Assembly (NCBI GenBank): GCA_013153685.1
Contig: JAADDX010000054.1
Span: 2,842-66,841 of the forward strand
Length of the DNA: 64,000 bases
Reading direction: 5' to 3'
Source of the DNA: Campylobacterota bacterium
Lineage (GTDB): Bacteria > Campylobacterota > Campylobacteria > Campylobacterales > JAADDX01
Positions within the stretch are counted from its first letter, which is position 1. Each line of letters starts with the position of its first letter. The notes under the pieces are model-generated. The model was not told the origin of the DNA. It saw nothing but the letters and a program-made list of their open reading frames with translations, and did not search any database. This document shows, one piece after another, positions 11,798 to 54,387 of this stretch. Position numbers and translations under genes: made by a program.

Positions 11798-12194
11798 CTC
11801 TATCCTTAATAATACGTTTTTCTATATCATACAACGCGTATCTATTTTGCTTGAAAATCTCCGATGTGGAAATATCAATAAGCTTGAAAATCTCTTCTAA
11901 AACTCTTGCACTTTGTTGTGCACGCTTAATATTGGCTGTAATTATATCAAATATATCGGCACGATTTTGCTCACTTTTGGTAGAATCTCTCAAAACATCA
12001 TTCGTAGCATCTCTAGAATCGATAAGGAGTTGATAATCAATAGGTAGTTTTACATGTCTGAGGCGTTTGAGTAAAGAGGATATATCTTTGTTATCATAAA
12101 CATAACGAAAAATATCCTCAACTACTCGAATCCCTTCTTGATAGCGGTTAATATTAGCATCCACTATCCGCAGCACATCGTTATTCTTCTTCAC
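11778..12194 (-). CDS. Stand-alone ThiD2-like domain protein (this domain is otherwise fused N-terminally to thiamine-phosphate synthase); function unknown
   Basis: [25 protein letters not shown] matches, from memory, the N-terminal domain of some ThiE proteins. The start is ambiguous. GTG 12194 is chosen to limit overlap with the upstream gene; the track uses ATG 12227. It overlaps smpB by 20 nt. Confidence 0.35.
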
Positions 12195-12852: not shown

Positions 12853-12920
12853 TAATACTCCTTAATTTTTTGCTAATTTTAATAATTATAGATGAATGTA
12901 AAATTAATCTTTTTGCGAAA

Positions 12921-12949
12921 TTGACATTTGGTGATAAAAAAGTTATAAT
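12921..12949 (+). promoter_or_regulatory. Consensus sigma-70 promoter TTGACA-17 nt-TATAAT
   Basis: TTGACA at 12921-12926 and TATAAT at 12944-12949 have an exact 17-nt spacer, 22 nt upstream of ATG 12972. This supports the shortened start of the downstream gene. Confidence 0.55.
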
Positions 12950-12971
12950 AAACTCAAAAAAAGGTTATAAA

Positions 12972-15077: not shown

Positions 15078-15087
15078 AGGAGAGTTT

Positions 15088-16476
15088 ATGTATATTTACA
15101 ATTCACACACCAAACAAAAAGAAAAATTTGTACCTATTAAAGATAACGATGTGAAAGTCTACGTATGTGGACCAACGGTATATGATGACGCTCATCTCGG
15201 GCACGCAAGAAGCAGTATTAGTTTCGATTTGCTAAGAAGAGTGCTAAAAGCAAATGGTTATAACGTAACCTTTGTCAAAAACTTCACGGATATCGATGAT
15301 AAAATAATCAACAAAATCAACACCACCGGTAAAACGTTACAAGAAATTACTCAACACTATATCGATAGTTATCTACACGATATGGGTGCTTTGGGTGTGC
15401 AAAGAGCGGATATCGAGCCAAAGGCGACTGAGAGCTTGGATGCAATGTTTGAGCTTATTAATATCTTAAAAACCAAAGGGTATACTTATGAATTAAATGG
15501 GGATATATATTTTGATACAAGCAAAGATGAAAATTATTGTTCACTAAGTCACAAATGTCAAGATGATGCTGAGAGTAGAGTTAGCATTGAAGGCAAAAAA
15601 CATCCAGCGGATTTTGCTTTGTGGAAAGGTTGTAAGGGAGATGGGGATGTATGTTTTGATTCGCCTTTTGGCAAAGGTCGCCCTGGATGGCATATCGAAT
15701 GTAGTGCTATGATAAAAAAACATATCGCTTATGAGGGTGAATTTGAGATAGATATACATGGCGGTGGGGCGGACTTGTTCTTTCCGCATCATGAAAATGA
15801 AGAAGCTCAAAGTAGTTGTGCATATGGAGGACACTTGGCAAAATATTGGATGCATAACGGATTTGTGAATATTAATGGGGAGAAGATGAGTAAGTCTTTG
15901 GGAAATAGCTTTTTTATCAAAGACGCCCTTAAGGTATATGATGGGGAAATTTTGAGATTTTATCTCATGGGGACTCATTACAGAGCAGGATTGAATTTTA
16001 ATGAAGAAGATTTATTAGCAAGCAAAAAGAGACTTGATAAACTCTATAGACTCAAAAAACGGATCTATGGTTTAAACAAAACAAACAAAGATAAAGACTT
16101 TGAAGATAGACTACTTCAAGCTATGAATGATGATTTGAATATCTCAAAAGCACTAGCGGTGATTGACGAATTTATCGCAAGTGCCAATGACGAACTTGAC
16201 AAAAATCCAAAAGATAAATCACTCAAACAAAAAATCAACTCAAATATCAACTTTATCCATAATCTACTTGGTATTGGAGGTAAAGACGCTTATGAGTATT
16301 TCCAAATGGGGATTGATGATGATACAAAAGAAAAAATAGAAGCATTAATCGCCAAAAGAGACAAAGCTAAAAAAGAGAAAAATTTTGAAATCGCAGATCA
16401 AATTAGAGATGGATTAAAAGAACTAGGAATTGCTATTAGCGATACACCAAACGGGACAATTTGGGAAAAGATATAG
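15088..16476 (+). CDS. cysS: Cysteinyl-tRNA synthetase
   Basis: 462 aa with class I HIGH-type HLGHARS and KMSKS motifs. Confidence 0.95.
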   Translation: MYIYNSHTKQKEKFVPIKDNDVKVYVCGPTVYDDAHLGHARSSISFDLLRRVLKANGYNVTFVKNFTDIDDKIINKINTTGKTLQEITQHYIDSYLHDMGALGVQRADIEPKATESLDAMFELINILKTKGYTYELNGDIYFDTSKDENYCSLSHKCQDDAESRVSIEGKKHPADFALWKGCKGDGDVCFDSPFGKGRPGWHIECSAMIKKHIAYEGEFEIDIHGGGADLFFPHHENEEAQSSCAYGGHLAKYWMHNGFVNINGEKMSKSLGNSFFIKDALKVYDGEILRFYLMGTHYRAGLNFNEEDLLASKKRLDKLYRLKKRIYGLNKTNKDKDFEDRLLQAMNDDLNISKALAVIDEFIASANDELDKNPKDKSLKQKINSNINFIHNLLGIGGKDAYEYFQMGIDDDTKEKIEALIAKRDKAKKEKNFEIADQIRDGLKELGIAISDTPNGTIWEKI

Positions 16477-17487
16477 ATGTTAACATTTCTTAGACTCAAA
16501 CGATCCAAATTTGGAGGGGCTGAAAATTATCTCTCAAGACTTACAGATGAATTATCCAAACACAACGTCAAATTCACTATCAAATATTCTTCCGCCCCCA
16601 AATTTCTACCCAGCTGGCTAAAGATCATATGGTATAATCTAGAAGTATGTCTTGGCAAAAAAGATATTTATTTCTCTTTTGAGCGTGTAATATGTCCGGA
16701 TATTTATAGAGCTGGTGATGGAGTGCATAAGGTATTTTTACAAACCATCAAAAAATCCAAATTCAATCCATTGCATTATGTGTATTTGTTTATTGAAAAA
16801 CGGATGTTTCAAAATGCCAAAATCATTATTGCTAATTCCAATATGATCAAACACCAAATCACTACTACCTACAACATCTCTCCTAACAAAATCATAACTA
16901 TCTACAACGGGATCAAGCTAAAACCACTAAGCAATGCAGATGATATCAAGAAAGAATTTAATATCACAAATGAAAAAATTTTGTTATATGTCGGTAGCGG
17001 ATTTGAGCGAAAAGGGGTAAAAGAGGTGATTCAAATCGCAAGTTATCTTGATGGAGATTATAAACTATTTATTGTGGGTAAAGAAAAACGGATAAAATGG
17101 TATCAAGATTATGCCAAACAACTAGGTGTCAATGCTATTTTTACCAATACTAGAGAAGATGTAGACAAATTTTATAGCTTAGCCGATGTATTTGTATTTC
17201 CTACTCATTACGAACCTTTTAGTAATGTGGTGCTAGAGGCTATGAGCTTTAAGTGTGCCGTTATTACTACGGCACAAAATGGAGCGAGTGAAATTTTGCC
17301 CGAAGAATTTGTTATGAAAAATCCTAAGGATTACAAAATCGAACTACTAAAGAAGCTATTAACCAACCCTTCATACCTCCAAAGCATCAAAGAACAAAAT
17401 TACCAAATAGCATCACAATTTACTATCGAAAAAAATGCCAAAGAAACCCTAAAAGTAATACAACAAGTTCTCAAGGATACAAAATGA
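16477..17487 (+). CDS. GT4 glycosyltransferase, WaaG/RfaG-like (LPS core)
   Basis: 336 aa with N-terminal KFGGAENYLSRL and a C-terminal EX7E-type HYEPFSNVVLEAMSF. The ATG abuts the cysS stop. Confidence 0.75.
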   Translation: MLTFLRLKRSKFGGAENYLSRLTDELSKHNVKFTIKYSSAPKFLPSWLKIIWYNLEVCLGKKDIYFSFERVICPDIYRAGDGVHKVFLQTIKKSKFNPLHYVYLFIEKRMFQNAKIIIANSNMIKHQITTTYNISPNKIITIYNGIKLKPLSNADDIKKEFNITNEKILLYVGSGFERKGVKEVIQIASYLDGDYKLFIVGKEKRIKWYQDYAKQLGVNAIFTNTREDVDKFYSLADVFVFPTHYEPFSNVVLEAMSFKCAVITTAQNGASEILPEEFVMKNPKDYKIELLKKLLTNPSYLQSIKEQNYQIASQFTIEKNAKETLKVIQQVLKDTK

Positions 17488-33303: not shown

Positions 33304-35046
33304 TTATAGATATTGTTCCCCGTCGTAGATATAAATCAATGCATTTACATCTATATTATCGATATTATCTACACTAAAGCTGCATAGTATATTATCATCA
33401 CTAAGGTTTGCTTCGTTTTTGTTGTCCACATAAAATACGGTAATATTATTTCCATCTTCATACATTACCAAAGCTGCAGATGCGTCGGTATTATCTCCAT
33501 TTAGATCAATTACATCACTACAACCATTCTCATCAATCCCATAATCATTACCGCTCTTTACCACATATAGTGCTACATCATCTGATATATTTCCGGCTTT
33601 AAGAGCACTAATCGTATCAGAAGTATCTCTAATTCTATCATATACACTCAATGTCGAAACTGTCGGTGCCGAACCTAGTGCAAAAGCATTTTTGTTTAGT
33701 AATATCTTATCATGGTCATAATCATAATCCAAAATCGATACATGATGTATATCAGATATCCAAGATTCAAAAAACACATAATCCTCTCCAGCACCAGTTG
33801 CAAGTGTAGCACTCTCAATCATATCGTTAGCTTTTAGCACGATATAATCATCACCCCCTAAAGCATCGACTCTATCCGCACCAGCATTGATGAGAATTTG
33901 ATCATTTTGGTTTGTTCCGCTCATATCATCATACATCCCATCTCTTCCCACAATCCACATTCCATTTTCACTTTGGGCACTCATATCAAGCTTACTAATA
34001 TCACCATTATTTGGATCAAGTGTTACAAAAAAGTGCGGCTTCATATTATCTACATAACCATCGGAAAATACCAAATCATCATCGCTTATAGAAGCATCGC
34101 TAGTGTATACTACACTTCCTCTATCGGTGATTTTATACACATTATCTCCAGCACCCATCACCACATCAAATCCATCCTTTGTATCCACAACCAATCCTGT
34201 TGCTGATGGATTAAGCTTGATATTATCATCATTATTTGTTCCTATTACGTATTTGATTTGGCTCAGATCCACATCACTCAAATCATAAATATCACTATAA
34301 GCAACATTCAAATACAAAGTATCCCCTTGGATTGCATACATCTGAGAGCTATCCATAGTAGGAGCAACCCCAGCAAATGCACTAACAGCAGATAACTTAT
34401 CTGATGAAGAATCCAACTGTGTCTTGAGAGCTTGGATGTCATCTTGGGTTTTGATTTTGGATACAACAGCTTGCATAGTTTGCACATCTTCTTTGAGTCG
34501 TGTACTATCATCCGTATCGATACTATCTACACTATCTGCAATTTCCTTTGATGCTTGCACTCTATTAGTATAAGTTTGAGCCGCCTTTAGGGCATCGTTA
34601 AAGTAATCTTGTGAATATCCATGATCCAAATAATATTGCTGCCACATATCGGGATGTTGAGGAATATCAAGTGCAACATTTACAATATCCAAAATCGCCT
34701 CACCCAATGTTTTGGTATGATCATACACCGTATGTGCCCAATAATCAATCCCTTGCGGGTCAGATTCATAGGATTTATCAAACAATGTCTTATACACACT
34801 CTCAATAACATTTTTGATACTATCGTAATTATTCAAATCCAAATTCGCATAATCTGGATACAAATCACCCAAATCATACGCTTTAGTTGCATAAATAGCA
34901 CCATTTACCATATTTTCCGCAAGCTGTGTTTGGCTATATTGATGTGTTATAGAATCGTTATACCAATAATCCACTTCCGCTTTGCTAGGTGCTCTTTGGA
35001 ACATAGCAACGTATAATTCAATAATCTTATCTCTATCAATCATCAC
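33304..35046 (-). CDS. Large acidic DUF4214-type protein with degenerate RTX/beta-roll-like Gly-Asp repeats; probably exported
   Basis: 580 aa. Two DUF4214-like segments are present (IIELYVAMFQRAPSKAEVDYWYN and VYKTLFDKSYESDPQGIDYWAH). The C-terminal half has GTNNDDNI, GAGDNVY, GTNQNDQILINAGADRVDALGGDDYIVL and TGAGEDYVFF. There is no N-terminal signal peptide. Confidence 0.6.
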   Translation of the reverse strand: MMIDRDKIIELYVAMFQRAPSKAEVDYWYNDSITHQYSQTQLAENMVNGAIYATKAYDLGDLYPDYANLDLNNYDSIKNVIESVYKTLFDKSYESDPQGIDYWAHTVYDHTKTLGEAILDIVNVALDIPQHPDMWQQYYLDHGYSQDYFNDALKAAQTYTNRVQASKEIADSVDSIDTDDSTRLKEDVQTMQAVVSKIKTQDDIQALKTQLDSSSDKLSAVSAFAGVAPTMDSSQMYAIQGDTLYLNVAYSDIYDLSDVDLSQIKYVIGTNNDDNIKLNPSATGLVVDTKDGFDVVMGAGDNVYKITDRGSVVYTSDASISDDDLVFSDGYVDNMKPHFFVTLDPNNGDISKLDMSAQSENGMWIVGRDGMYDDMSGTNQNDQILINAGADRVDALGGDDYIVLKANDMIESATLATGAGEDYVFFESWISDIHHVSILDYDYDHDKILLNKNAFALGSAPTVSTLSVYDRIRDTSDTISALKAGNISDDVALYVVKSGNDYGIDENGCSDVIDLNGDNTDASAALVMYEDGNNITVFYVDNKNEANLSDDNILCSFSVDNIDNIDVNALIYIYDGEQYL

Positions 35047-35715: not shown

Positions 35716-37047
35716 TTATATTCCTGTAGATACAAATACTGGAGCTGCAAAGATACCAAAATAAATAGTTCCAGCCAAAAGAATAAGTTGTCCTAATAAA
35801 CTACCTGGTGTCATATATATTTTGCTAGTATTATACCCATCCGTAGTATCAAAGTAGATATGTTTGATAACCCACGCATAATACCCCACAGATAATGCGG
35901 AATTTAACGCTGCAATAAGCACCAACGGCCACAATCCTGCATCTACCCCTGCCCAAAATGTTACGGCTTTTGAGATAAATCCAGCCATAATAGGCACACC
36001 TGCTAAGCTTAATAATTGAATTGTAAAAAATAGTGCATGAAGTGGACTTCTTTGATACAATCCTCTAATATCATCTAAAGTCTTAATATGAGCTTCTCTT
36101 CTTAGATCATTTAACAATAAAAACACACTTGTTTGCATAAAAATATACGCTACAGCCAAATATACTAATGCAGTATAACTATATCCACTTGCTATTGCAG
36201 CAAACGGAATAAGCATATACCCAGCATGTGCGATTGACGAAAATGATAAAATTTTTGCAATTTTCTTTTGAAATAATGCCATAAAATTCCCAAGTGTCAT
36301 TGTAATAATCGCAAAGAAACTAAACAATAAAACAGTTGTATTAAGGTATGCTTGTAAGAAAATATAAAATGCTTTGAATGTAGCAATTACGACTACTACT
36401 TTGATAACACTACTTAAAATAGCTGCAGCCGAATGGTTGATTTGTGCATACGCATCACCAGCCCAACCGTGCATAGGCACAATTGTCATCTTATAGAAAA
36501 TCCCAGCAAGCATAATACCTACCGCAACTAACGTAAAATTACCTCTTATTGCTATTTCCGCATAGTTAAAACTTGGTGTTACCATAGCAAATAGTGCAAA
36601 CCCTAGCAAAATAAATCCACTTGCAGTAGCCCCAGCTACAAACATTTTAATAGCACCCTCAGCGTTTAATCTACTTCTAATATTCGCACCTAGCACATAA
36701 GAAATAATCGCAATTACTTCAAATAATACAATAAACATCAAAAAGTTATTCGTCTCCAGCATAGCCATACTTGCCGCACCCAAAAATAACGTTTGTGATA
36801 CGAGCGGTCTCTCAAACCCGCTAAATGTCATCATTGTAGCTGCTAATACTATCAATACTACAATCTCTAAAAGCTGTATATCCGGTGTGAGAGTAAAATA
36901 CTCCATCGAAATACCATGCCCCATAAATACGTTAAATGCTGCAAATGCAAATGCAGCAGTTGCGATATATTTCGCAATAACGATTTTTCCTTTAAAGAAC
37001 AAAGGAACTAAAAGTCCGGCTCCTATTAATATAATCAAACTATTCAT
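35716..37047 (-). CDS. nuoN: Complex I-type subunit N (antiporter-like)
   Basis: 443 aa polytopic Mrp/NuoN-like protein, last gene of the nuo block. 1-nt overlap with nuoM. Confidence 0.85.
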   Translation of the reverse strand: MNSLIILIGAGLLVPLFFKGKIVIAKYIATAAFAFAAFNVFMGHGISMEYFTLTPDIQLLEIVVLIVLAATMMTFSGFERPLVSQTLFLGAASMAMLETNNFLMFIVLFEVIAIISYVLGANIRSRLNAEGAIKMFVAGATASGFILLGFALFAMVTPSFNYAEIAIRGNFTLVAVGIMLAGIFYKMTIVPMHGWAGDAYAQINHSAAAILSSVIKVVVVIATFKAFYIFLQAYLNTTVLLFSFFAIITMTLGNFMALFQKKIAKILSFSSIAHAGYMLIPFAAIASGYSYTALVYLAVAYIFMQTSVFLLLNDLRREAHIKTLDDIRGLYQRSPLHALFFTIQLLSLAGVPIMAGFISKAVTFWAGVDAGLWPLVLIAALNSALSVGYYAWVIKHIYFDTTDGYNTSKIYMTPGSLLGQLILLAGTIYFGIFAAPVFVSTGI

Positions 37048-38477
37048 TACATACCTCCAAACATTGCAAATGCATTATTTGCTATATCAAAGATTGGTTG
37101 AGGATATACACCAAAAAATACAATCAACACCGCATAAATACAAAGTGCCAAAAATTCTGGTTTACTCATATCAAATTTGCTTTTTGCAACAATTGGTGAA
37201 ATTTCCGCGTGGAACGCACGTCTAACTGCCCAAATCACATAACCAGCACTGATTAACGAAGCAATCGCCGCTACCGCTATCCACCATCCATAAGCTTTAA
37301 TAGCTGATACTATGATGGTAAGCTCTCCTACAAATCCCATCGTTCCTGGTAAACCAAGTGCCGCCATACCGGCTAATACGAATATCGCACTGATATAAGG
37401 TGCTTTTTGCATAATTCCACCCATCTCATCCATATACCAAGTATGAGTCTTGTGATGCACCCAACCAGCAATCAAGAACATTGGTGAGATCACCAAAGCA
37501 TGCCCTATCATCTCATAAAGTGCTGCACTCAATCCGTCATAAGTTACAGTAGCAATAGCCACCACTACAAGTCCCATGTGCGAAATTGATGAATATGCCA
37601 CCATTTTCTTAATATGTCTTTCATAAATCGCCAAGAACCCTGCAAATAATGTAGTCGTAAGACCCAATACAACCATATACATTGAAAACTGCATAGTAGT
37701 TGCCGGCATCATTTCCACTACAAATCTAATAAGTCCATACGCACCCATTTTAAGTAAAACACCAGCTAGCAATACCGAAATACTACTTGGTGCTTCCACG
37801 TGTGCATCCGGTAGCCAAGTATGAAATGGGAAAAGAGGCAATTTAGCTGCAAACCCAATAAACATAAACCACCAAATCAATACCGGAGTAGCAAGCATAG
37901 CCTCTTTAATCATAGTAAAGTCCATCTGCCCTGTTTGTTTGTAAATAAGGAAAAAACTCACAAGCATAAACATTGACGCGAAGTGAGTGTATAAGAAAAA
38001 TTTAATCGCTGCATAAACTTTTCTCTCACCTCCCCAAATACCTACCAAAAAGAGCATTGGAACAAGGGTCATCTCCCAAAAAATGAAAAACCACAAAAGG
38101 TTTGTTGTCATAAACACACCAAAAATCGGTCCCGCAAATAAGATTAGCAAAGAAAAATATGCTGCTTGCATTTTTTCTTCCCACGAAGTAAACACTACCA
38201 AAATCAACAGTGCTGCTGTTAATATCAACATAGCCACACTCAAAGCATCTACTTGCAACGTAAGTGCATAATCAAACCCCGGAACTCTCAAATAATCTCC
38301 AAGTACCAAAAATCCACCACCAACCGGTAAAGCATGGTATAAATCCACAGAGATAATCAACAATAATACAAATAATGCCAAAGCAGCCCATTTAGCCACC
38401 CATTCAGCACCCCTTGAGATAAAATACACAAACGGTGCTAGAAGCATCGGTCCAAATATCAACATTATACTACTCAT
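37047..38477 (-). CDS. nuoM: Complex I-type subunit M (antiporter-like)
   Basis: NuoM pattern: FFIFWEMTLVPM, WLPDAHVEAPSSISVLLAGVLLKMG. ATG 38477 (SD AAGGTG 6 nt upstream) is preferred over GTG 38486. Confidence 0.9.
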   Translation of the reverse strand: MSSIMLIFGPMLLAPFVYFISRGAEWVAKWAALALFVLLLIISVDLYHALPVGGGFLVLGDYLRVPGFDYALTLQVDALSVAMLILTAALLILVVFTSWEEKMQAAYFSLLILFAGPIFGVFMTTNLLWFFIFWEMTLVPMLFLVGIWGGERKVYAAIKFFLYTHFASMFMLVSFFLIYKQTGQMDFTMIKEAMLATPVLIWWFMFIGFAAKLPLFPFHTWLPDAHVEAPSSISVLLAGVLLKMGAYGLIRFVVEMMPATTMQFSMYMVVLGLTTTLFAGFLAIYERHIKKMVAYSSISHMGLVVVAIATVTYDGLSAALYEMIGHALVISPMFLIAGWVHHKTHTWYMDEMGGIMQKAPYISAIFVLAGMAALGLPGTMGFVGELTIIVSAIKAYGWWIAVAAIASLISAGYVIWAVRRAFHAEISPIVAKSKFDMSKPEFLALCIYAVLIVFFGVYPQPIFDIANNAFAMFGGM

Positions 38478-38478
38478 A

Positions 38479-40326
38479 TTACACACCTTTTACTATAATT
38501 AGAATTGCAACTACAATAATCGCAACACCAATTGCATATGTTCCGATATAATCACCAATTCTACCCGTATGTCCGATTCTAAATCCTCTAAAAATCATTC
38601 TTGCAAACGGCACCGTAGCATTTACAACCCAATCAATCATATAAGTATCAACCCATCTAAGAGCCCTTGCTATACCGTTTACTACGATGTTTTTACTAAT
38701 AAACGTAATTCCAGCTTCTACATAATATCCTCTAAATAATAATTGGTGAATAATTTGCATAAATCTATGTTTCGAAATTTTCTCAAGTAGATTCATCCCT
38801 TTTACATACAATCCTACAACAATAGCAAATAATGTCGCCATTCCAAGCAACAATCCTACAAGCAACCCTTTTACATGAGGCTCTTCAATCTCATGTCCTA
38901 CAATATACTCAACCGCATCAGTTTGATATAAAGCAATTCCAAGCGTAACAAACGCTAAAATTCCAAGAGGTAATCTAATAAAGAAATTTCCCGGTGCATG
39001 AACATGTCCCGCAATATCTTCATTTCTTGGCTCACCCAAGAAAATAAGAATCCAAAGTCTTGTAATATACGCAATAGATAAAAGCCCTGCAATAGTTACT
39101 AATGTATATACAAACGGGCTTCCATGCGTAATAGCTTCTGCAATAATCATATCTTTTGAGAAAAATCCACTAAATGGTGGCAGCCCAGCAAGAGACATAG
39201 AACCCATCGCCATGAATAACGCTACGTATGGAGCTGTCTTGATGAGACCTCCAAGCTTCCAAGCATCTTTTGTGTGGTGTGCTATATAGATAACTGCACC
39301 CGCACTTAGGAATAATAAAGCTTTGAAAATCGCATGGTTCATAAGATGAAGCATCCCTGCAGCCAAACTACCTACTCCAAGTCCTACAAACGCAATAGAT
39401 AAGTGCGACATTGTCGAATACGCAAGGATTTTCTTAATCTCTTTTTGCACCAATGCACTTGTAGCTCCAATAAATGCCGAAAGTGCTGCTACATTTGCTA
39501 CTACAAGCAACGCATCCGTATAAGCATAAAAATCAAAAAGTCTCGCTACGATATAGATACCACTATTTACCATCGTAGCACCGTGAATAAGTGCTGATAC
39601 CGTAGTAGGTCCTTCCATCGCATTCATTAACCACGGATATAGTGGAAATTGTCCAGACTTACCAACTGCTGCTAAAAAGATAAAAATAGCTGTTATAAAC
39701 GCTACTGTTTTGTCAATCTCACCAGCTTTTGCAAGACTATCTAGATCCACCATATTAATATTTCCAACAAAATATACCAAAAGCCCAATTGCGGCTAGAA
39801 GGAATATATCACCAAATCTTGTATATAAAAATGCTTGCATCCCTGCATCCGCAGCAGATTTGGTCTTAAACCAAAATGAGATGAGTAAATATGAAGCAAG
39901 CCCCATAAACTCCCAACCTGCAAATGCACCAATTAAGTCTTTTGCAATTACAAGTAAAATCATACCACCGATAAAAAACAATACTTTTGCGTAGTATCTC
40001 GGCTGATCTGGATCATCACCCATATAATCATGAGCAAAATGGATATCTGCAAACCCAAGTCCAGTCGCTATCAACAACATTACAATACTTAAATGATCTA
40101 TATAAATCCCAAGAGGTAACGTAAGATTACCGTATGCAATCCAAGTATAATCTATATCAATAGGAGTCTCTCCATAGTGCATAAATACATAAACAGATGT
40201 CCCAAACAAAATAGCCCCTACTATTTCTGCTACCCAAAAGGCTAACTTCTGGTTCATCTTTCCTAAAATAAACGCAAGTGCCGCACCTACGTATGGCAAT
40301 ATTAAATAAATACTTACACTAGTCAT
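38479..40326 (-). CDS. nuoL: Complex I-type subunit L (antiporter-like, with long C-terminal extension)
   Basis: GWEFMGLASYLLISFW and WLMNAMEGPTTVSALIHGATMV. ATG 40326 (AAGGGGG SD) is preferred over 40344. It overlaps the nuoK end by 8 nt. Confidence 0.9.
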   Translation of the reverse strand: MTSVSIYLILPYVGAALAFILGKMNQKLAFWVAEIVGAILFGTSVYVFMHYGETPIDIDYTWIAYGNLTLPLGIYIDHLSIVMLLIATGLGFADIHFAHDYMGDDPDQPRYYAKVLFFIGGMILLVIAKDLIGAFAGWEFMGLASYLLISFWFKTKSAADAGMQAFLYTRFGDIFLLAAIGLLVYFVGNINMVDLDSLAKAGEIDKTVAFITAIFIFLAAVGKSGQFPLYPWLMNAMEGPTTVSALIHGATMVNSGIYIVARLFDFYAYTDALLVVANVAALSAFIGATSALVQKEIKKILAYSTMSHLSIAFVGLGVGSLAAGMLHLMNHAIFKALLFLSAGAVIYIAHHTKDAWKLGGLIKTAPYVALFMAMGSMSLAGLPPFSGFFSKDMIIAEAITHGSPFVYTLVTIAGLLSIAYITRLWILIFLGEPRNEDIAGHVHAPGNFFIRLPLGILAFVTLGIALYQTDAVEYIVGHEIEEPHVKGLLVGLLLGMATLFAIVVGLYVKGMNLLEKISKHRFMQIIHQLLFRGYYVEAGITFISKNIVVNGIARALRWVDTYMIDWVVNATVPFARMIFRGFRIGHTGRIGDYIGTYAIGVAIIVVAILIIVKGV

Positions 40327-40627
40327 TGTATTTACCCCCTTCATCCAATTTATCTGGGATAACTTCTTTTGTGATTCTATTTGATAATAAGAATATCAAA
40401 ACTCCTGCCGCCGCTTCAAGTGTTGCAATAACTATCACGATATATGCAATAGCTAGATTTTGTGTCATACCAAAATGATACGCACTACTTGCCAATACCA
40501 AAATCACAGCATTTAAAAGCATCTCTAATGAAAAAAATATTCTCAAAAAATCAGCTTTATTCGTAACGCCGTATAACCCTATCGCAAATAAAATAATTGC
40601 GAATATCATATCTATCTCAAAACTCAT
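40319..40627 (-). CDS. nuoK: Complex I-type subunit K
   Basis: 102 aa with three TM helices and a conserved Glu in LEMLLNAV and TLEAAAG. Confidence 0.85.
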   Translation of the reverse strand: MSFEIDMIFAIILFAIGLYGVTNKADFLRIFFSLEMLLNAVILVLASSAYHFGMTQNLAIAYIVIVIATLEAAAGVLIFLLSNRITKEVIPDKLDEGGKYND

Positions 40628-41100
40628 GACAATTCCTTTTCATGCTTTAGAGTATGTAGCATTCTAATACTTCCGTATAGTAAACTAGCTCCTACCACAG
40701 CCAAGAATATCGCAACTTCGGCATAATTTTCGGTTAGAACGGTAACTTGTGCTTTTACGTTACCCGCATTCTCTACTACGTTGAAGTTTGGCATAATAAA
40801 TGGAATTACAATAAATCCAATAGCTATTAAAACAATACTTGCCACAGCCCATGGTCTTGATTTTTCTTCTGGAAATGTACTTCCTATTACCGTCACACCA
40901 AATAATACCAATACTACAATCCCACCGGTATAGACAAAAATCTGGAACAATCCAAGTAATTTTTCGTCATATCCGATATAATAAAGTCCAAGCAAAAACA
41001 TTAACAACGCAAAACTCAAAACTGCCGGAACTGTTTTTTTTACCGTAATTGAAATTACAGCCAAGATAATTACCGCTACAAGTAACAAAATACTAACCAT
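40624..41100 (-). CDS. nuoJ: Complex I-type subunit J
   Basis: Start moved to ATG 41100 (MVSILLLVAV, SD AAGGAGG 5 nt upstream). The 62-codon polybasic N-terminus in the track is the nuoI tail read in another frame. Confidence 0.8.
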   Translation of the reverse strand: MVSILLLVAVIILAVISITVKKTVPAVLSFALLMFLLGLYYIGYDEKLLGLFQIFVYTGGIVVLVLFGVTVIGSTFPEEKSRPWAVASIVLIAIGFIVIPFIMPNFNVVENAGNVKAQVTVLTENYAEVAIFLAVVGASLLYGSIRMLHTLKHEKELS

Positions 41101-41665
41101 TATTATCCTCCTTTGTAGGAGCTTCTTTACTAGCTTCCTCTTTTGCTTTTGCTTCAGCTTCGGCTTTTGCTTTTGCTTCAGCTTCGGCTTTCTTTTTGGC
41201 CGCCATCTCAGCTTTCTTTTTGGCTGCTGCCTCAGCTTTTTTTCTTTCTTCTTCTTTTTTCTTTTCGATCCAATCTTGCGGCACATCTACTCTCACCCAA
41301 AAATTATCTTGAGCTTCATGTGCTCCACCAGCTCTCATATCAAAAGTTCCACCGCTCAATTTCAATGCCTTTGGTTTGGTAGGGCATACATCCTCGCATA
41401 ATCCACAAAAAATACAAATAGCCAAATTCACTTCCGGTATCTTATTTGGTCTTTTTAATGGTAACGGTTTCATCACAATCGCATCTACGGGACAGATTTT
41501 ATTACAAGCATCACACCCCGTACAAACATCATATAAAATCTCATGCTTACCTCTAAATATTTCAGACTTATGCACGAAATCTTTGCTTGCGTCTTTGGTA
41601 GCAAGCCTATCTTCTGTCATACTTTTTGATACTCTTATCATTTTTTTTATAATATCAACTAACAT
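41093..41665 (-). CDS. nuoI: Complex I-type subunit I (2x[4Fe-4S] ferredoxin fold) with an unusual Lys/Ala/Glu-rich C-terminal tail
   Basis: Fe-S motifs CTGCDACNKICP and CIFCGLCEDVCP are present. Residues ~134-190 are KKKEEERKKAEAAAKKKAEMAAKKKAEAEAKAKAEAEAKAKEEASKEAPTKEDNNG. Confidence 0.85.
   Translation of the reverse strand: MLVDIIKKMIRVSKSMTEDRLATKDASKDFVHKSEIFRGKHEILYDVCTGCDACNKICPVDAIVMKPLPLKRPNKIPEVNLAICIFCGLCEDVCPTKPKALKLSGGTFDMRAGGAHEAQDNFWVRVDVPQDWIEKKKEEERKKAEAAAKKKAEMAAKKKAEAEAKAKAEAEAKAKEEASKEAPTKEDNNG
41141..41236 (-). repeat. Four 24-bp tandem units inside the nuoI 3' end (two identical, two imperfect)
   Basis: 41141-41164 equals 41165-41188 (ttttgcttttgcttcagcttcggc). 41189-41212 and 41213-41236 are related copies of each other (tttctttttggc[c/t]gc[c/t][a/g][t/c]ctcagc). 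They encode the 8-residue periodic AEAKAK/KKKAEXAA tail. Confidence 0.9.
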
Positions 41666-41666
41666 A

Positions 41667-42632
41667 TCAAGCTCCTAAAATATATAGTTTCGCAAAGATT
41701 ACCCAAACTATATTTAAAATCGACAACGGAACCAACCAACTCCATGCGAATTTTAACATTTGATCAAGTCTAAGTCTTGGATTTGATGCTCTAATAGCCA
41801 CCATCACCACCGCAATAAGTGCAATCTTTAGAAATAAACACCAAAAACTATCAAAAAACAATCCTCTATAACCACTAAAGAATAGCGTTACAGCAGCAGC
41901 TGATACTACCAAAATCTCGGTAAATTCAGCAAATTTAAGCAATACATAATTTGTCCCTGAGTATTCTGTATAAAATCCATATACAATTTCCTGTTCCGCA
42001 TCTGGAATATGAAACGGTGGTTGTTCTAAAATCCCAAGCATTGCAATAATAAAAATAATCGCTCCTGGCAATAAAATCAACGTCGTAAGCCAATTATTAG
42101 CATACATAATATCATGCAAATTCATTGTTCCAAATAAAATAGCTGGGCTTAATGCCGCTAAGAAGAACGGGGTCTCCATTGAGAGCATTTGAGCCAATAT
42201 TCTCATACCACCAAGAAATGAATATTTATTGTTACTACCAAATCCCGTAAGAAAGAGTAAAAACGGCTCAACACCGATTAATACAACCAATCCTAAAACT
42301 CCATATTGAGTATCCACAACCACACCATTGTGCATCCAAGGAGTCCAAGGAATCAAAACAACCGGTAACGCCGCTACTATCGGTGTGATAAGAGGAATTA
42401 CATTAAATAAATACGGATCTACACTCTTTGGTGTGATATTCTCTTTTGTTAAGAGTTTAAATACATCATACACCGTTTGTAACGTCCCAGCCGGTCCGTT
42501 AAAATGTGGTCCTACCCTTTTGTGTATCCTAGCAAGTACTTTTCTTGCAAAATAAAACACAAAAAAGGTCCATCCTAGCAAAAACAAAAGACCTGGAAAG
42601 ACCAATATCTGAAATATTATATTATTCATCAT
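41667..42632 (-). CDS. nuoH: Complex I-type subunit H
   Basis: 321 aa with ARIHKRVGPHFNGPAGTLQTVYDVFKLLTKE, matching the NuoH N-terminal loop pattern. About 8 TM helices. Confidence 0.9.
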   Translation of the reverse strand: MMNNIIFQILVFPGLLFLLGWTFFVFYFARKVLARIHKRVGPHFNGPAGTLQTVYDVFKLLTKENITPKSVDPYLFNVIPLITPIVAALPVVLIPWTPWMHNGVVVDTQYGVLGLVVLIGVEPFLLFLTGFGSNNKYSFLGGMRILAQMLSMETPFFLAALSPAILFGTMNLHDIMYANNWLTTLILLPGAIIFIIAMLGILEQPPFHIPDAEQEIVYGFYTEYSGTNYVLLKFAEFTEILVVSAAAVTLFFSGYRGLFFDSFWCLFLKIALIAVVMVAIRASNPRLRLDQMLKFAWSWLVPLSILNIVWVIFAKLYILGA

Positions 42633-42642
42633 CTCTATCTCC

Positions 42643-44292
42643 TTATCTATCTAAATCACCCTGACAAATATGCATACTTCCATAAACCAATGGAATATCA
42701 GAGAGAGTTTTTCCTCTTAAAAGTTCATCTAAAACCATCGTGTGATTCACACTTGGTGCTTTGATTTTGAGTCTATATGGGTTTGTTGCTTTCTCTTGTG
42801 TTACAAGATGCATCAAAATCTCTCCTCTTGCCCATTCGATTCTGGTTACTGCTTCACCCGCTGGCAGTTTTTTTGGTATTCTTACAAGATGGTCTTTTTG
42901 TGGATTCATCTCTCCACTTGCTATCCCTTCTTGAATTTTTGCAATAGCTTGTTTGATAATATCCATTGACTGGTCTAATTCTTTGAAAAATATATGCAAT
43001 CTATCGTAAATATCCCCATTCTCACAAGTTACATAATCAAATTCAATCTCATCATACCCTGCATAAGGCTCATCGATTCTCACATCCACTTTTACTCCAC
43101 TTGCCCTTGCAATCGGACCTGCCATGTAGTTTTGAACCACATCTTCTTTGCTGATAATAGCATTTGCTACCGCTCTTGTCTTCATAAGAGGGTTGTTAAT
43201 AAAAATATCAAAAAATTCATCCTTGCTACTTTCGTATTTCTCAATAGCCTTTTGTACAATATCCAACCATCCATCTCTTAATGGATATCTCACACCACCT
43301 GGCTCAATACACGCAGTAGCAATTCTAGCCCCACTATATTCTTCTAAAGCATCTAGGAAATATTCTCTTACATCCATAGTCCACATTACAAACGTATGAA
43401 GTCCGGCATTACCGAAAAATCCACCCATACTAATAAGATGTGATGCGATTCTACCGATTTCCCCTAATACTACTCTCATCAATTTTGCAAATCTTGTAAT
43501 CTCTTTTCCTGCAATCTCCTCAACCGCTTGAGAGTAACAAATCATAGGATTTGGATTGTCCATAAAACAAATTCTCTCAACCGCTACAATGCTCCCAATA
43601 AAATCTTTTCTTTCCACTAAATGTTCAAGTGCTCTCCAAACATATCCAATATCTGGATCCACCCATTGGATATTTTCTCCATCCACACCTACTTTCAATC
43701 TAATAGGACCGCTTGCTGGGTGTGTAGGTCCCCAGTGAAGGATAGTTTTACTTCCGTCTTTTGGCAGTGTTTTTTCATTCTCTTCGTATTCATCAAGCCA
43801 TTCGCTAGTAATTTCATCAATATTTTGGATTAAATTTTGTTCGTGAGCTTTCCAGTCAAAATCTTTTCTAAATGGAAATTTACCGTAATAATCAGCTGAA
43901 ATTAAGAAATATCTCAAATTAGGATGCCCTTCAAACTTTACTCCGAATGTAGAGTATGCTTCTAATTCATGCCAATTGGCACTTGGCATCAAAGGAGTAA
44001 TAGATGGTATTTTGCATGCTTCTAATTCTCTTGGAATATCAAATTTTAGCCATACGTTTTTTTTGTTGATAATATCTTCTAAAAAATAATTAACCTCTAT
44101 TTTATTTTCATCTATAAAATCTGTAGGCGAAACTGTTGAACATGTTTTAATACCCTCTGCTTGCAAGTCTTGCACTATACTAAGCAAGTCGTTTGGATTT
44201 GTGAATTTAGCTTTTAGCCATGTTGGTTTGTAGTCTTCTACATACTCGTTGTCATATTTTTCTAATACTTTTCTAATCGCTTCCATCATCAA
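42643..44292 (-). CDS. nuoCD: Fused complex I-type subunits C and D (NuoCD), with the D part divergent and hydrogenase-like
   Basis: 549 aa. The N-terminal ~170 aa is NuoC-like (ANWHELEAYSTFGVKFEGHPNLRYF). The D part begins HWGPTHPASGPIRLKV and ends VYGSMHICQGDLDR. Only 10 nt separate it from nuoH. Confidence 0.8.
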   Translation of the reverse strand: MMMEAIRKVLEKYDNEYVEDYKPTWLKAKFTNPNDLLSIVQDLQAEGIKTCSTVSPTDFIDENKIEVNYFLEDIINKKNVWLKFDIPRELEACKIPSITPLMPSANWHELEAYSTFGVKFEGHPNLRYFLISADYYGKFPFRKDFDWKAHEQNLIQNIDEITSEWLDEYEENEKTLPKDGSKTILHWGPTHPASGPIRLKVGVDGENIQWVDPDIGYVWRALEHLVERKDFIGSIVAVERICFMDNPNPMICYSQAVEEIAGKEITRFAKLMRVVLGEIGRIASHLISMGGFFGNAGLHTFVMWTMDVREYFLDALEEYSGARIATACIEPGGVRYPLRDGWLDIVQKAIEKYESSKDEFFDIFINNPLMKTRAVANAIISKEDVVQNYMAGPIARASGVKVDVRIDEPYAGYDEIEFDYVTCENGDIYDRLHIFFKELDQSMDIIKQAIAKIQEGIASGEMNPQKDHLVRIPKKLPAGEAVTRIEWARGEILMHLVTQEKATNPYRLKIKAPSVNHTMVLDELLRGKTLSDIPLVYGSMHICQGDLDR

Positions 44293-44295
44293 TCC

Positions 44296-44769
44296 TTAAA
44301 ACTTCATTTCTTTCCAAAGTCCGCCTTGGCTTGCGGCACTTGGTTCACCTTTTTTGATTTTTTCTTTTACTTCTTCTAGACCCGCTAATATCGCTTCTGG
44401 TCTTGGAGGACAACCTGCTACAAACACATCTGCTGGTAAAATTTCCGTCACGTTTTTAATAACGCTCGCACTATCATTATAAGGTCCCCCATCATAAGCA
44501 CAAGCACCAATAGCCACCACATAGCTAGGTTCTGGCATCTGTGCATAAGTCCTAAGAAGTGCCGGTAAAATCTTTTTACTTACAAGTCCTGTAATAAAAA
44601 TAATATCCGCTTGTCTTGGTGTAGGAGTCATTATGTATCCATATCTCTCCCAATCGTATCTTGGAGACATTGCCGCAAGCATTTCTAGTGAACAACACCC
44701 ACTACAAAAATGCACAATCCATGGGGATTTACTCTTTGCGTAATTAAAAAAATCAAGAATTTTTAGCAT
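44296..44769 (-). CDS. nuoB: Complex I-type subunit B (N2 cluster subunit)
   Basis: 157 aa with Cys ligand pattern FCSGCCSLEM, GACAYDGGPY and GCPPRPEA. Confidence 0.9.
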   Translation of the reverse strand: MLKILDFFNYAKSKSPWIVHFCSGCCSLEMLAAMSPRYDWERYGYIMTPTPRQADIIFITGLVSKKILPALLRTYAQMPEPSYVVAIGACAYDGGPYNDSASVIKNVTEILPADVFVAGCPPRPEAILAGLEEVKEKIKKGEPSAASQGGLWKEMKF

Positions 44770-45091
44770 ATCTATACTCCTTCATTGAAATAGTAACGGC
44801 TGCGAACAATAACAATCCAAATACCATCGCGATATTTAGGCTATATTCCGTATTATCAAATACAAACAAACTAAAAAATAGCCCACTCATATCAAAGATA
44901 ATAAAAGCAATTGCGAAAATAAAATACCCAAAATTTGCTTTCATAGGCACTTCACTACTTGGTGGAAGCCCACACTCAAAGTGATCATTTTTTACTTCAT
45001 TTGGTCTATATGGTGCTACCATAATACCTAGTAAATACAGTAAAAACACACCGCCTAATATTCCAAAAGCAAATATAAAAACAGTCTCCAT
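44753..45091 (-). CDS. nuoA: Complex I-type subunit A
   Basis: Start moved to ATG 45091 (METVFIFAFGILGG, SD AAGGAG 6 nt upstream) from TTG 45181. 112 aa with 3 TM helices and the FECGLPP motif. Confidence 0.8.
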   Translation of the reverse strand: METVFIFAFGILGGVFLLYLLGIMVAPYRPNEVKNDHFECGLPPSSEVPMKANFGYFIFAIAFIIFDMSGLFFSLFVFDNTEYSLNIAMVFGLLLFAAVTISMKEYRYAKNS

Positions 45092-45170
45092 ACAAAACTC
45101 CTTGTCTAATTTAGAGATTTTTATATAAAATGATAAAATAATTTTTGGATTTTTTAAAGGTTTTTGGGGA

Positions 45171-45176
45171 ATTATA
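45171..45176 (-). promoter_or_regulatory. Candidate -10 hexamer TATAAT for the nuo operon
   Basis: The minus strand reads ttttgatTATAATtcccc about 80 nt upstream of nuoA ATG 45091. Position-based guess only. Confidence 0.3.
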
Positions 45177-45196
45177 ATCAAAATTTATAAAAAGCG

Positions 45197-47160: not shown

Positions 47161-47619
47161 TTAAAATGGTATATCTTCTTCATCTATATCTATAGATGGC
47201 ACATTTTGTTGTGGTTGAGGTTGAGGTTGTGGTTGTGGTTGTGGTTGAGGTGTAGACGCTTGTGTTGCGTAATTTCCACTCTCATGATTATCTCTACCTC
47301 CTAAAAACTTCAACTGCTCTACTATCACTTCGTGTTTACTGCGTTTTTGTCCACTTTGGTCTACCCATTGATTAAGGGATAATCTACCCTCTATCAATAC
47401 TTGGCTTCCTTTTTTGAGGTATTGGTTGGCAGTCTCGGCTGCTCTACCAAATACAGTAAAATCAATAAACATCGCTTCTTGTTTTTTTTCTTTGGTAACT
47501 GGATCTGTGTATACCCTATTAGTAGCGATTCCACTTTTTGCTACCGCTGTTCCACTTGGAGTATATCTAAGCTCGATATCTCTAGTTAAGTTACCTATTA
47601 AAATCACTTTGTTATACAT
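47161..47619 (-). CDS. ssb: Single-stranded DNA-binding protein
   Basis: OB-fold N-terminus [23 protein letters not shown], a (PQ)n linker and the acidic tip DIDEEDIPF. Confidence 0.95.
47206..47250 (-). repeat. Hexanucleotide (CCNCAA) repeat encoding (PQ)7-8 in the SSB linker
   Basis: The plus strand reads ttgttgtggttgaggttgaggttgtggttgtggttgtggttgagg. It translates as [17 protein letters not shown]. Confidence 0.9.
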
Positions 47620-52521: not shown

Positions 52522-54387
52522 ATGGGATTTTTTGACGGATTTAAAAAAGAGAGCAAAAAAGAGACAGAAATTAGCTCACATATCATAAAAACAGATAATA
52601 TTGCGGATATTTTAAACAAAATTTCCAAAGAAACAGACACGCCCATATCAAGCTTAGATTTTGATATAGAGGGTGTAGATACGTTTGTGAAATTAAGCAA
52701 GGATACTGAGTTTGTGCTTGCAGATTTTCAGACATTTGAGCTTATCAAAGAGAAGGACTTATTAAAAAACGCCGATTTTGAGATTCGACAAACATACGAA
52801 ATCAGACTCAAAAAATTTCGATTTTCAAATAGCTTTGAGCTACTAGGTAAAGTAGTCGTAAACCCAGATACCACTCAAGCAAGCTATATCGTCTCACCAA
52901 AATCAATACTAAGATACAACAACGCCCTTGAATTCAAGATAAAAGACGAATTAAACAAGAAAAAAGCCAAATTAAATATGTTAATAGAGCTAGACTTTTT
53001 AGAAGGAAATTTATCGCATGATGTGGATAAATTGATACAAATTGTCAAAGAGGGAGAGTTGCAAGAGGATTTTGAGATAGAATTATGTAGAGCTATCCCT
53101 CCTATCAAGCCGATTCCATTGCAAATTATCGAGCACTACAAAAAACACAAAAGAACGGATGATCGAGTAAAAGAATTTATCTACCCTATTAAAAAAGGGG
53201 AATTAATATTGGAGATTATCAAACCAAAAAACGGGATTATAGGTAGAAATTGCAAAGGGGAAGTGATTGAGGTAGAAGAGGTGGAGAATGTAAAAATCCC
53301 GCAATACTACTGCAGTGAAGATGTCCTTGTAAGAGAGGATGATAAACATATTGAATATATAGCCAATTCAGCTGGGTTTGTGTATATCAGACAAAACGAA
53401 ATAGAGATCAAACATGAGATAGAAGTTAATCAAATATCTCTAAAGACCGGAAATGTAAAAGGTGCTGAAGAGAGCGAAGTGAAGTTGGAAGTTAAAGACA
53501 GCGATGCCCTAAAAGAAGCTATCCATGATGGGATGGTGGTAGAGACAACCGAGCTTATCGTAAAAGGAAATGTAGGAAACGGTGCCAAAATCAAAGCAAA
53601 ATACTTAGAGATAGAAGGGCAAACTCACAAAGGTTCTAAAATACTTGCCAAAGAAGCTCATATCAACGCACACAAAGGGCACCTCAAAGCAAATATAGCT
53701 AAAATCAACCGACTAGAAGGGGGGCTAGTTGAAGGAAATAGCGTATCTATCAAACAAGCTATTAGCGGTAAAGTAATCGCTAAAGATATTCATGTAGATT
53801 TGTTAGGTTCGCATATCACGTTAATGGCGAGTGTGATGATTGATATTAGTAGTCTCAAAGGGCATGAGAACAAACTTATTATCGACGAAGTAGCAACAGA
53901 TAACAAAGAAGACTACATTAAAGAGGTCAAAAAAGAAGCACATGAGATGGATATAGAAATCCGCCATTTGCAAGAAAAGATAGACAAACACAAAACTAGC
54001 CTTAAAAACAACAAAAAAAACGTTCAAGCCATCGATAAAAAAATCAAAGAATTAAAAGCCAAAAAACTACCAATAGATAAAGAGTTGATTGACAAAATCA
54101 AAAAATACAAAGAATACGTCAAAAAAACAAGAATGCTTGAGGAAGATCTAAAGACGCTTAAGCTCAAAAGGGAATTGCTAGAGGATAAATTAAACAAAGT
54201 CCAAGAAGGTATTACGAAAGCTATTATTATAGCAAGGTCTGGATTTCCGGAATTTAACAGAATCGAATTTCACCTAACTAATCCGCCAAAGAAAATCACA
54301 TACGATACCAAAAGGACCGATCTTTATAAAACACGTTTTATGTTGCGTCAGGATGATGATGGAAATTATAAAATAGTAGGAGAATAG
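52522..54387 (+). CDS. FapA/DUF342-family protein, paralogue 2
   Basis: 621 aa, collinear with paralogue 1. Its core ELIVKGNVGNGAKIKAKYLEIEGQTHKGSKILAKEAHINAHKG looks roughly two-thirds identical by eye. It lacks the acidic tail. The stop abuts the ruvA ATG. Confidence 0.6.
   Translation: MGFFDGFKKESKKETEISSHIIKTDNIADILNKISKETDTPISSLDFDIEGVDTFVKLSKDTEFVLADFQTFELIKEKDLLKNADFEIRQTYEIRLKKFRFSNSFELLGKVVVNPDTTQASYIVSPKSILRYNNALEFKIKDELNKKKAKLNMLIELDFLEGNLSHDVDKLIQIVKEGELQEDFEIELCRAIPPIKPIPLQIIEHYKKHKRTDDRVKEFIYPIKKGELILEIIKPKNGIIGRNCKGEVIEVEEVENVKIPQYYCSEDVLVREDDKHIEYIANSAGFVYIRQNEIEIKHEIEVNQISLKTGNVKGAEESEVKLEVKDSDALKEAIHDGMVVETTELIVKGNVGNGAKIKAKYLEIEGQTHKGSKILAKEAHINAHKGHLKANIAKINRLEGGLVEGNSVSIKQAISGKVIAKDIHVDLLGSHITLMASVMIDISSLKGHENKLIIDEVATDNKEDYIKEVKKEAHEMDIEIRHLQEKIDKHKTSLKNNKKNVQAIDKKIKELKAKKLPIDKELIDKIKKYKEYVKKTRMLEEDLKTLKLKRELLEDKLNKVQEGITKAIIIARSGFPEFNRIEFHLTNPPKKITYDTKRTDLYKTRFMLRQDDDGNYKIVGE

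Follow-up and report, generated by a model that had tools for sequence, protein, structure and literature searches.

Which molecule gives electrons to, or takes them from, the widespread complex I-like enzymes with 11 subunits is an open question (PMC11238625), and a locus from a Campylobacterota bacterium raises it in a concrete form. The locus lies in a 64-kb stretch of contig JAADDX010000054.1 (assembly GCA_013153685.1, positions 2,842 to 66,841). Here, "the window" means this whole stretch, and all positions are those of the window. A ten-gene nuo operon (nuoA-B-CD-H-I-J-K-L-M-N with nuoC and nuoD fused; 35716..45091, minus strand; assigned with Pfam and NCBIfam) encodes a complex I-like enzyme in which NuoI carries a long C-terminal tail rich in Lys, Ala and Glu. 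The stop of nuoCD (42643) and the start of nuoH (42632) are direct neighbours with no gene between them, and therefore the operon is without nuoE, nuoF and nuoG. The initial annotation, a model's reading of the bare sequence, had likewise found no N-module in it. What is the NuoI tail, and what could it do in an enzyme of this kind? As judged from its homologues, it is a genuine, selected and clade-wide extension of NuoI in the Nautiliaceae-type enzyme lacking NuoEFG, with a shorter version in the Sulfurimonas-type enzyme; its function can be discussed in terms of several possibilities of unequal probability.

The C-terminal extension of NuoI and its conservation

The nuoI gene (41093..41665, minus strand; 190 amino acids plus stop) is flanked by nuoH and nuoJ. 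Residues 1-132 (41270..41665) form the core, which consists of an N-terminal helix and a ferredoxin fold for two [4Fe-4S] clusters. Indeed, the translation contains two CxxCxxCxxxCP motifs (residues 48-59 and 84-95), Pfam detects the dicluster 4Fe-4S families Fer4_7, Fer4_9 and Fer4_10, and the cluster-binding region was modelled by AlphaFold2 with a predicted local distance difference test score (pLDDT) of 85-94. Foldseek matched the model to NuoI/TYKY/NdhI chains with a probability of 1.0, the alignments running mainly over the core (at most 159 columns, with a root-mean-square deviation of ~14 Å for the longest ones), and returned no solved NuoI homologue with a similar C-terminal helix. 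In NCBIfam, every NuoI equivalog model stays far under its cut-off (TIGR01971, 62.7 bits vs a cut-off of 113.05), and homologues of the protein are labelled "4Fe-4S binding protein" by NCBI; the protein thus represents a divergent NuoI subfamily rather than a non-member. Because a search with the core only against 1.84 billion cluster representatives gave just four clusters below 1e-30, this family is sharply set apart from other NuoI-like proteins. By sequence, the top-scoring subunit of a solved complex I-like membrane complex was subunit N of the Pyrococcus membrane-bound sulfane reductase (MBS; PDB 6u8y_N, E 9.9e-11), and only formylmethanofuran dehydrogenase polyferredoxin chains scored higher. 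This match recalls a published proposal in which the Nuo complexes of Nautiliales and Mbx-like complexes form sister groups (PMC4758237).

Directly past ...FWVRVDVPQDW (W132) NuoI continues for another 58 residues (IEKKKEEERKKAEAAAKKKAEMAAKKKAEAEAKAKAEAEAKAKEEASKEAPTKEDNNG; 41096..41269, minus strand). This is the same Lys/Ala/Glu tail that had been placed at 41096-41266 in the initial annotation, i.e., counted from E134, and it is real. It consists of a constant proximal part (residues 133-169, IEKKKEEERKKAEAAAKKKAEMAAKKKAEAEAKAKAE; 41159..41269, minus strand), characterized by near-invariant alignment columns, a low rate of non-synonymous substitution (dN) and a predicted helix, and a variable distal part (residues 170-190; 41096..41158, minus strand), which differs in length and repeat number between homologues.

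A tail is present in 119/119 best homologues, which share 60-89% identity with the window NuoI and include those of Nautilia, Caminibacter, Lebetimonas and many metagenome-assembled genomes (MAGs), among them MAGs of Nautiliaceae; the highest matches of the protein search were 87-89% identical. Sulfurimonas-type relatives (54-58% identity) have a shorter tail (YIDSRLEEEEA.RVKKEL.AKKK.AEA...). Column conservation was determined from an alignment of 89 homologue sequences. Here, K157 and K158 are invariant (87/87), as is A156 (85/85), E139, E140 and E153 are each found in 86/87, and position 154 is M or L in 78/87. The family consensus of the constant segment reads W-I-E-x-K-K-x-E-E-E-E-K-A-R-K-K-A-E-M-M-A-K-K-K-A-E-A-E-A-K-K-K-A-E and includes the conserved motif E-[M/L]-[M/L/A]-A-K-K-K. 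Further on, past residue ~170, the entropy of the columns is higher than 2 bits and the tails differ in length. The alignment of orthologues, proposed initially as a check, thus revealed a clade-wide, selected tail that goes beyond a strain-level repeat expansion.

Selection was assessed by comparing the window with three relatives at 80-86% identity. In the proximal 31 codons of the tail dN is 0.013-0.055, vs 0.096-0.154 in the Fe-S core, figures to be read with the small number of codons and the low complexity of the sequence in mind. Synonymous sites in these 31 codons are saturated (9-17 synonymous and 1-4 non-synonymous differences). On this comparison, purifying selection acts on the amino acids of the proximal tail at least as strongly as on those of the core. 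An overlapping gene or another constraint at the DNA level was considered as the cause of conservation and rejected, because the synonymous sites are saturated and the open reading frame in the other frame is an over-extension of nuoJ.

Family-wide, the tail is 30 to 110 residues long (median 52; 110 in P0118), and within clusters of at least 90% identity it has 46-60 residues, with all variation being distal. The length variation that had been predicted from the repeats is therefore borne out. The distal tail is often S/T/N/P/E-rich and disordered, and it probably grows and shrinks through slippage of 24-bp units. A K/A/E tail was also found in P0236, an archaeal-looking relative with a split NuoJ, for which the homologue search gave no named relatives.

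Charge pattern and predicted structure

The tail is composed of 18 K/R, 15 D/E and 17 A and has a net charge of +3; across the family, the whole tail has a net charge between -3 and +8 (median +3). In 120/120 sequences, the proximal 32 residues carry a positive net charge (+2 to +7), and the distal part is neutral to acidic (-7 to +2). The tail is thus a near-balanced polyampholyte, not a poly-lysine. With the family alignment, AlphaFold2 predicts one unbroken helix over residues 130-179 (pLDDT 82-87), followed by ~11 disordered residues (pLDDT below 50 for residues 184-190) and the stop.

The order of the charges agrees with this model. Opposite charges are spaced i,i+4 in 17 pairs, vs a mean of 7.6 in shuffled tails, and 0/10,000 shuffles reach this number; like charges are avoided at i,i+4 (2 pairs vs a mean of 7.4) and at i,i+3 (0 vs 7.6). 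Helical resultant vectors are ~0.1 for K/R, D/E and A/M/I, meaning that there is no amphipathic or hydrophobic face. Such a charge pattern typifies a single alpha-helix (SAH) stabilised by salt bridges. The tail would therefore be expected to fold as a single solvent-exposed, salt-bridged alpha-helix of ~50 residues and ~75 Å, similar to a SAH rod, with basic triplets recurring every 8 residues in the mid constant segment. The initial description of an 8-residue periodic, highly charged and probably helical appendage built on 24-bp units agrees with these results, at the helix level with the AlphaFold2 prediction, but the accompanying picture of a "flexible poly-Lys arm" has to be given up: the net charge is only +3, the predicted 50-residue helix is rigid, and the order of the charges favours salt bridges within the helix.

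Tandem repeats in the tail DNA

The tail DNA had been read as four 24-bp units, which is confirmed. Two units, each encoding AEAEAKAK and together covering residues 160-175, are identical (41141-41164 and 41165-41188, together 41141..41188, minus strand; 24/24), and the two units next to them (41189..41212, AEMAAKKK, and 41213..41236, AEAAAKKK; minus strand) are diverged units, 20/24 identical to each other. Since identity between the two pairs is only 13-16/24, the repeats are two pairs of units, not one four-copy array. Accordingly, Tandem Repeats Finder reports two arrays of period 24, one with a score of 99 (41132-41191) and one with a score of 79 (41187-41243), and these are the top-scoring tandem repeats of the whole window. 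The only other ones that score at least 60 are GTTGTG repeated 7.3 times (47208-47251) and a 21-bp unit present twice (52935-52976).

Given the amino acids, the probability that all 8 codons match between the AEAEAKAK units is ~0.0013-0.0014 (with the codon usage of the operon or of the tail), so that the exact copy reflects a recent event of duplication or conversion, beyond what a low-complexity protein would cause. In a related locus (L087) the AEAEAKAK copies differ at synonymous sites, and the exact copy in the window is therefore its own recent event. Codon usage adds a further observation: GCC makes up 4% of the Ala codons in the nuo operon vs 4/17 in the tail, where it starts both AEAEAKAK units and adjoins the Lys run (on the 5' side) in each of the other two, as would be expected if whole units had been copied as DNA. 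The number of AEAEAKAK units varies among homologues, from one in P0017 and P0317 and two in the window to nearly three in P0012. Furthermore, residues 144-147 are gaps in 66/89 aligned sequences, i.e., the clade of the window has four additional residues there compared with Nautilia-type homologues.

Among all frames of the window, a content of at least 80% K+E+A over 30 residues is reached only in the NuoI tail. A genome-wide habit of K/E/A tails thus finds no support within the window, no second stretch of this kind being present in the 64 kb in all frames.

NuoI C-termini and the presence of nuoEFG

The distance between nuoD and nuoH and the C-terminus of NuoI were compared in all loci that were fetched. 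A contig scan with the pattern CIFCGLCE gave at least three close relatives and 77 mostly Bacteroidota loci, the latter being reused as the set of 14-subunit operons. In 58 loci with a nuoD-nuoH gap of the size of nuoEFG (2.9-5.1 kb), NuoI extends 32-73 residues past the second cluster motif, and none of them has a K/E/A helix on NuoI; the same tail in canonical 14-subunit operons, which had been named as evidence against a link with the missing N-module, was thus not encountered in this set. Some of the gapped Bacteroidia loci encode an unrelated NuoI extension (...RIDVTKRQT..EFKK...). K/E-rich tails are present in gap-less loci (L001-3, L084-88, L091) and in L090, where the gap is 186 bp. 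Among further near relatives lacking nuoEFG, P0130 and P0126 (the latter in L092) have short K-rich tails, that of P0126 being Q/K-rich, and the tail of P0143 is Pro/Ala-rich. In this small and phylogenetically clustered sample, K/E-rich NuoI tails occur only in nuoEFG-less operons, which is consistent with the proposed correlation between the tail and the loss of these genes and is no proof of it.

In two loci (L082, 10001-20408, and L083, 9467-19874), a tail-less NuoI of 135 amino acids is encoded by the last gene of a nuoA-B-CD-H-I cluster. It is followed by an island of genes for HTH regulators, Bro-N proteins, DNA methylases and a NgoPII-type restriction enzyme, and nuoJ-N are absent within 10 kb, suggesting a split operon in the tail-less clade.

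Operon structure and gene context

The other genes of the operon, all on the minus strand and assigned with Pfam and NCBIfam, are nuoA (~44753-45091), nuoB (44296-44769), the fused nuoCD (42643-44292), nuoH (41667-42632), nuoJ (40624..41100; Pfam Oxidored_q3; 158 amino acids, as in its homologues), nuoK (40319-40627), nuoL (38479-40344), nuoM (37047-38486) and nuoN (35716-37047). Related loci share this gene order. The open reading frame of nuoA (44753-45181, 142 amino acids, TTG start) is probably too long, as NuoA of relatives has 111-112 amino acids, a length that fits an internal ATG (METVFIFAFG...) near 45091.

The start codon of nuoJ (ATG, 41098-41100) overlaps the stop of nuoI by 8 nt (ATGGTTAG), and a Shine-Dalgarno sequence, AAGGAGG (41107..41113, minus strand; read from the sequence), is located within the NuoI codons K-E-D. 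An ending ...AAGGAG...AATAATGGTTAG is common to L084, L086 and L087. Because the nuoJ Shine-Dalgarno sequence sits inside these NuoI codons, the last tail residues KE[ED]NNG are constrained by the initiation of nuoJ translation. A mechanically called nuoJ frame (40624-41286, minus strand, 220 amino acids) starts 62 codons before the real ATG, and over this additional length it translates the NuoI tail out of frame into a K/R/Q/P-rich peptide (MCRKIGSKRKKKKKEKKLRQQPKRK...).

The LepA protein of the window is 85-86% identical to those of Caminibacter and Nautilia, and the source organism is thus an uncultivated relative of Nautiliaceae. The operon type is known from this group. The genome of Nautilia profundicola was reported to be without nuoE, F, G and K (PMC2628731), an ancestral "NUO10/NUO11" operon with fused NuoCD and a missing NuoE-G module was described for Nautiliales (PMC4758237), and a truncated complex has been reported for deep-branching Campylobacteria generally (bioRxiv 10.1101/717884). 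In the deep-branching H2-dependent Campylobacterota, this complex was called possibly ancestral (bioRxiv 10.1101/717884; PMC4758237).

Directly downstream of the operon lies a gene for a 580-amino-acid Asp/Asn-rich protein (33304-35046, minus strand) with D-rich repeated segments (MMIDRDKIIELYVAMFQRAPSKAEVDYWYND...). In the closest NCBI relative (L084; GCA_030826765.1, JAUUDM010000016.1), a gene for the large subunit of ribonucleotide reductase is located just upstream of the nuo operon (2741-6304 of that locus) and carries an intein with a LAGLIDADG endonuclease domain. In a Campylobacterales MAG (L002, JAJRQV010000102.1), nuoJ and nuoK are separated by three inserted genes (11025-16837 of that locus), which encode a DUF4010 membrane protein, a single-chain pyruvate:ferredoxin/flavodoxin oxidoreductase (PFOR) of 1186 amino acids and a dihydroorotate-dehydrogenase-like protein; NuoL is split there (529 + 92 amino acids). 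The PFOR insertion is found only in L002, being absent from L001, L003, L084, L086, L091, the window and all other loci examined, and provides anecdotal support for a link to ferredoxin rather than a family trait.

Possible functions of the tail

In E. coli, NuoI has a C-terminal extension of 42 residues (139-180), which is ordered, contacts NuoG, NuoE, NuoF, NuoB and NuoD, buries 122-805 Å2 on each of these five subunits and stabilises the arm (PMC8357420). The assumption that canonical NuoI ends shortly behind its ferredoxin fold therefore does not hold in general. Because the E. coli extension runs over these subunits, we infer that the tail of the window NuoI leaves the core at the interface for the N-module, which without NuoEFG would be a solvent-exposed surface above cluster N6a.

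With confidence that falls somewhat short of an even chance, we favour the view that the constant net-basic helix is an arm for recognition and steering of an acidic redox partner at N6a. The mid constant segment, with its basic triplets and E-[M/L]-[M/L/A]-A-K-K-K, would capture an acidic partner next to N6a, either a soluble ferredoxin or flavodoxin or an enzyme linked to ferredoxin. In that case the complex would operate as a ferredoxin:quinone oxidoreductase or, in the reverse direction, as a ferredoxin reducer driven by the proton motive force for the reverse tricarboxylic acid cycle, which requires reduced ferredoxin (PMC2628731). The more specific proposal that the 37-residue basic helix is a built-in docking element for ferredoxin, flavodoxin, PFOR or 2-oxoglutarate:ferredoxin oxidoreductase (OGOR), i.e., an equivalent in cis of NdhS/NdhV/NdhO, is put forward with considerable reserve. 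Homologues of NdhS, NdhV and NdhO are not encoded in the nuo operon, and the 64-kb window contains neither a ferredoxin gene nor a second open reading frame with a CxxCxxCxxxC motif. If the docking proposal were correct, the tail would be the first motif for donor recognition that can be made out in bacterial complex I-like enzymes with 11 subunits, and E-[ML]-x-A-K-K-K on a C-terminal helix of NuoI would be a marker predicting ferredoxin-coupled complexes in vent chemolithoautotrophs.

Several observations speak against a recognition arm. The net charge of the whole tail is low and, in part of the family, negative, and the charges neutralise each other along the helix, which weakens the case for a simple electrostatic antenna. 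The end of the helix bears no bound domain. Tail-less relatives (P0286 and P0123, 135-136 amino acids, 51-53% identity, ending in ...FIIKAKEKISTQPQI) are encoded in the same nuoA-B-CD-H-I arrangement; the tail is therefore not obligatory for nuoEFG-less enzymes, these relatives being the exception to the correlation suggested by the initial annotation. The comparison of operon types is phylogenetically non-independent, the 14-subunit loci being mostly from Bacteroidota, and the variety of extensions in nuoEFG-less lineages may simply mean that an exposed NuoI C-terminus is permissive. AlphaFold2 readily gives helices for sequences of this kind. Finally, the invariance of single residues exceeds what nonspecific steering would need, and a fixed protein-protein contact fits it equally well.

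Such a contact is the basis of the main, though rather doubtful, alternative, in which the helix is a structural brace that packs on or clamps NuoCD and NuoB (or loops of NuoH and NuoA) left uncovered by the missing N-module. Its role would be to stabilise the truncated peripheral arm in these vent bacteria, which are moderately thermophilic, as the tails of NuoI, NuoB and NuoF do in E. coli. A fixed interface typically shows such near-invariant residues and a dN below that of the Fe-S core, two conserved hydrophobic residues (M/L) are located about six turns into the helix, and the E. coli NuoI extension is a direct precedent (PMC8357420). However, without a hydrophobic or amphipathic face lengthwise packing is unlikely, the E. 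coli extension is a coil whose contacts are mostly with subunits missing here, the Foldseek search gave no structural counterpart among solved NuoI homologues, and a tail-less relative (P0286) exists. If bracing were its sole role, the tail would be the second case, after E. coli and with a different structure, of a C-terminal extension of NuoI that stabilises complex I.

The helix could also be a free SAH rod or an entropic bristle without a specific partner, which shields the Fe-S face, spaces complexes or aids the solubility or assembly of NuoI. This is unlikely. It agrees with the SAH-type charge pattern and the predicted isolated helix, with the variable, frequently disordered distal part of up to 110 residues, and with the compositionally unrelated NuoI extensions in other nuoEFG-less operons. 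In contrast, a generic spacer needs only a composition and a pattern, not 37 near-invariant residues and a conserved M/L, and it leaves unexplained why the proximal part is net positive in each of the 120 sequences; moreover, SAH domains normally join two domains, whereas the end of the NuoI tail is free.

Pairing of tails of neighbouring complexes through EAK16-type repeats, as helices or as beta-sheet, into dimers or membrane arrays is very improbable. Residues 160-175 are indeed identical to AEAEAKAKAEAEAKAK, the self-assembling EAK16 peptide (PMC2387071), but the exact 16-mer is confined to the clade of the window, with one to three units, the conserved proximal segment is more basic and not self-complementary, and AlphaFold2 gives a helix. 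A functionless neutral expansion of low-complexity sequence, or an assembly or frameshift artefact as considered in the initial annotation, has a negligible probability in spite of the slippage-prone repeat DNA and the clear drift of the distal part, as the same frame and tail recur in more than 120 independently assembled homologues, the proximal 31 codons are under strong purifying selection despite saturated synonymous change, and the frame ends in the conserved overlap with the nuoJ Shine-Dalgarno sequence and ATG; it is thus refuted for the proximal 37 residues and possible only for the distal ~20.

The recognition arm remains the reading that we prefer, at the strength given above. A conserved, easily deleted helix at the presumed electron-entry face represents a concrete experimental handle and a landmark for cryo-electron microscopy.

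Comparison with known systems

The identity of residues 160-175 with EAK16-II connects the tail by sequence to yeast zuotin, from which the EAK16 peptide derives; this peptide has been studied as a self-assembling one with a beta-sheet spectrum (PMC2387071). Zuotin is unrelated to NuoI, however, the 16-mer is not kept across the NuoI family, and the match is probably a convergence of low-complexity sequences.

SAH (ER/K) domains, e.g., those of myosin VI/X and caldesmon, are usually rigid linkers that join two folded domains. The NuoI tail shares with them the high content of E/K/R/A, the dense ladder of opposite charges at i,i+4, the lack of a hydrophobic seam and the predicted long isolated helix. 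It differs in being C-terminal with a free disordered end rather than an inter-domain spacer, and it is far more conserved in sequence than typical SAHs.

For the FpoF-less Fpo complex of Methanothrix, which likewise has no input module, a lysine-rich extension at the C-terminus of the NuoI homologue FpoI has reportedly been proposed as a ferredoxin dock (attributed to Welte and Deppenmeier, 2011/2014). The literature searched, which did not include this source, contained no mention of such an extension and only a broader ferredoxin proposal, namely that in the FpoF-less enzyme ferredoxin may donate to the clusters of FpoB/FpoI (PMC10470525; PMC9012536).

The NuoI of E. coli is similar in having a lineage-specific C-terminal extension of 40-60 residues that is conserved within its clade and located at the face of the electron-input module. 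In contrast, that extension is an extended coil with one helical turn in a 14-subunit enzyme, whereas a 50-residue K/E/A helix is predicted for the window tail. The E. coli-type tail (GKYPEYNFYR...DVRSILP, as in L080) has no sequence resemblance to it.

Photosynthetic NDH-1 is the functional parallel of the proposed recognition arm, as it is an N-module-less relative in which electrons enter at N6a of the NuoI homologue and basic residues recruit an acidic ferredoxin. Ferredoxin binds there in a strongly positive NdhI/NdhH pocket, to which NdhV and NdhO add further basic residues (PMC7021789), and the flexible Lys-rich C-terminus of NdhS was proposed to "fly-cast" ferredoxin (PMC13249358). The difference is that the additional basic residues of NDH-1 are located on separate small subunits, and those of the window enzyme would be on NuoI itself, on a long, rigid predicted helix. 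The literature searched contained no description of a NuoI tail in these organisms. Known, therefore, is the truncated operon of Nautiliales, and new is a conserved SAH-like helical extension of NuoI in an enzyme without N-module.

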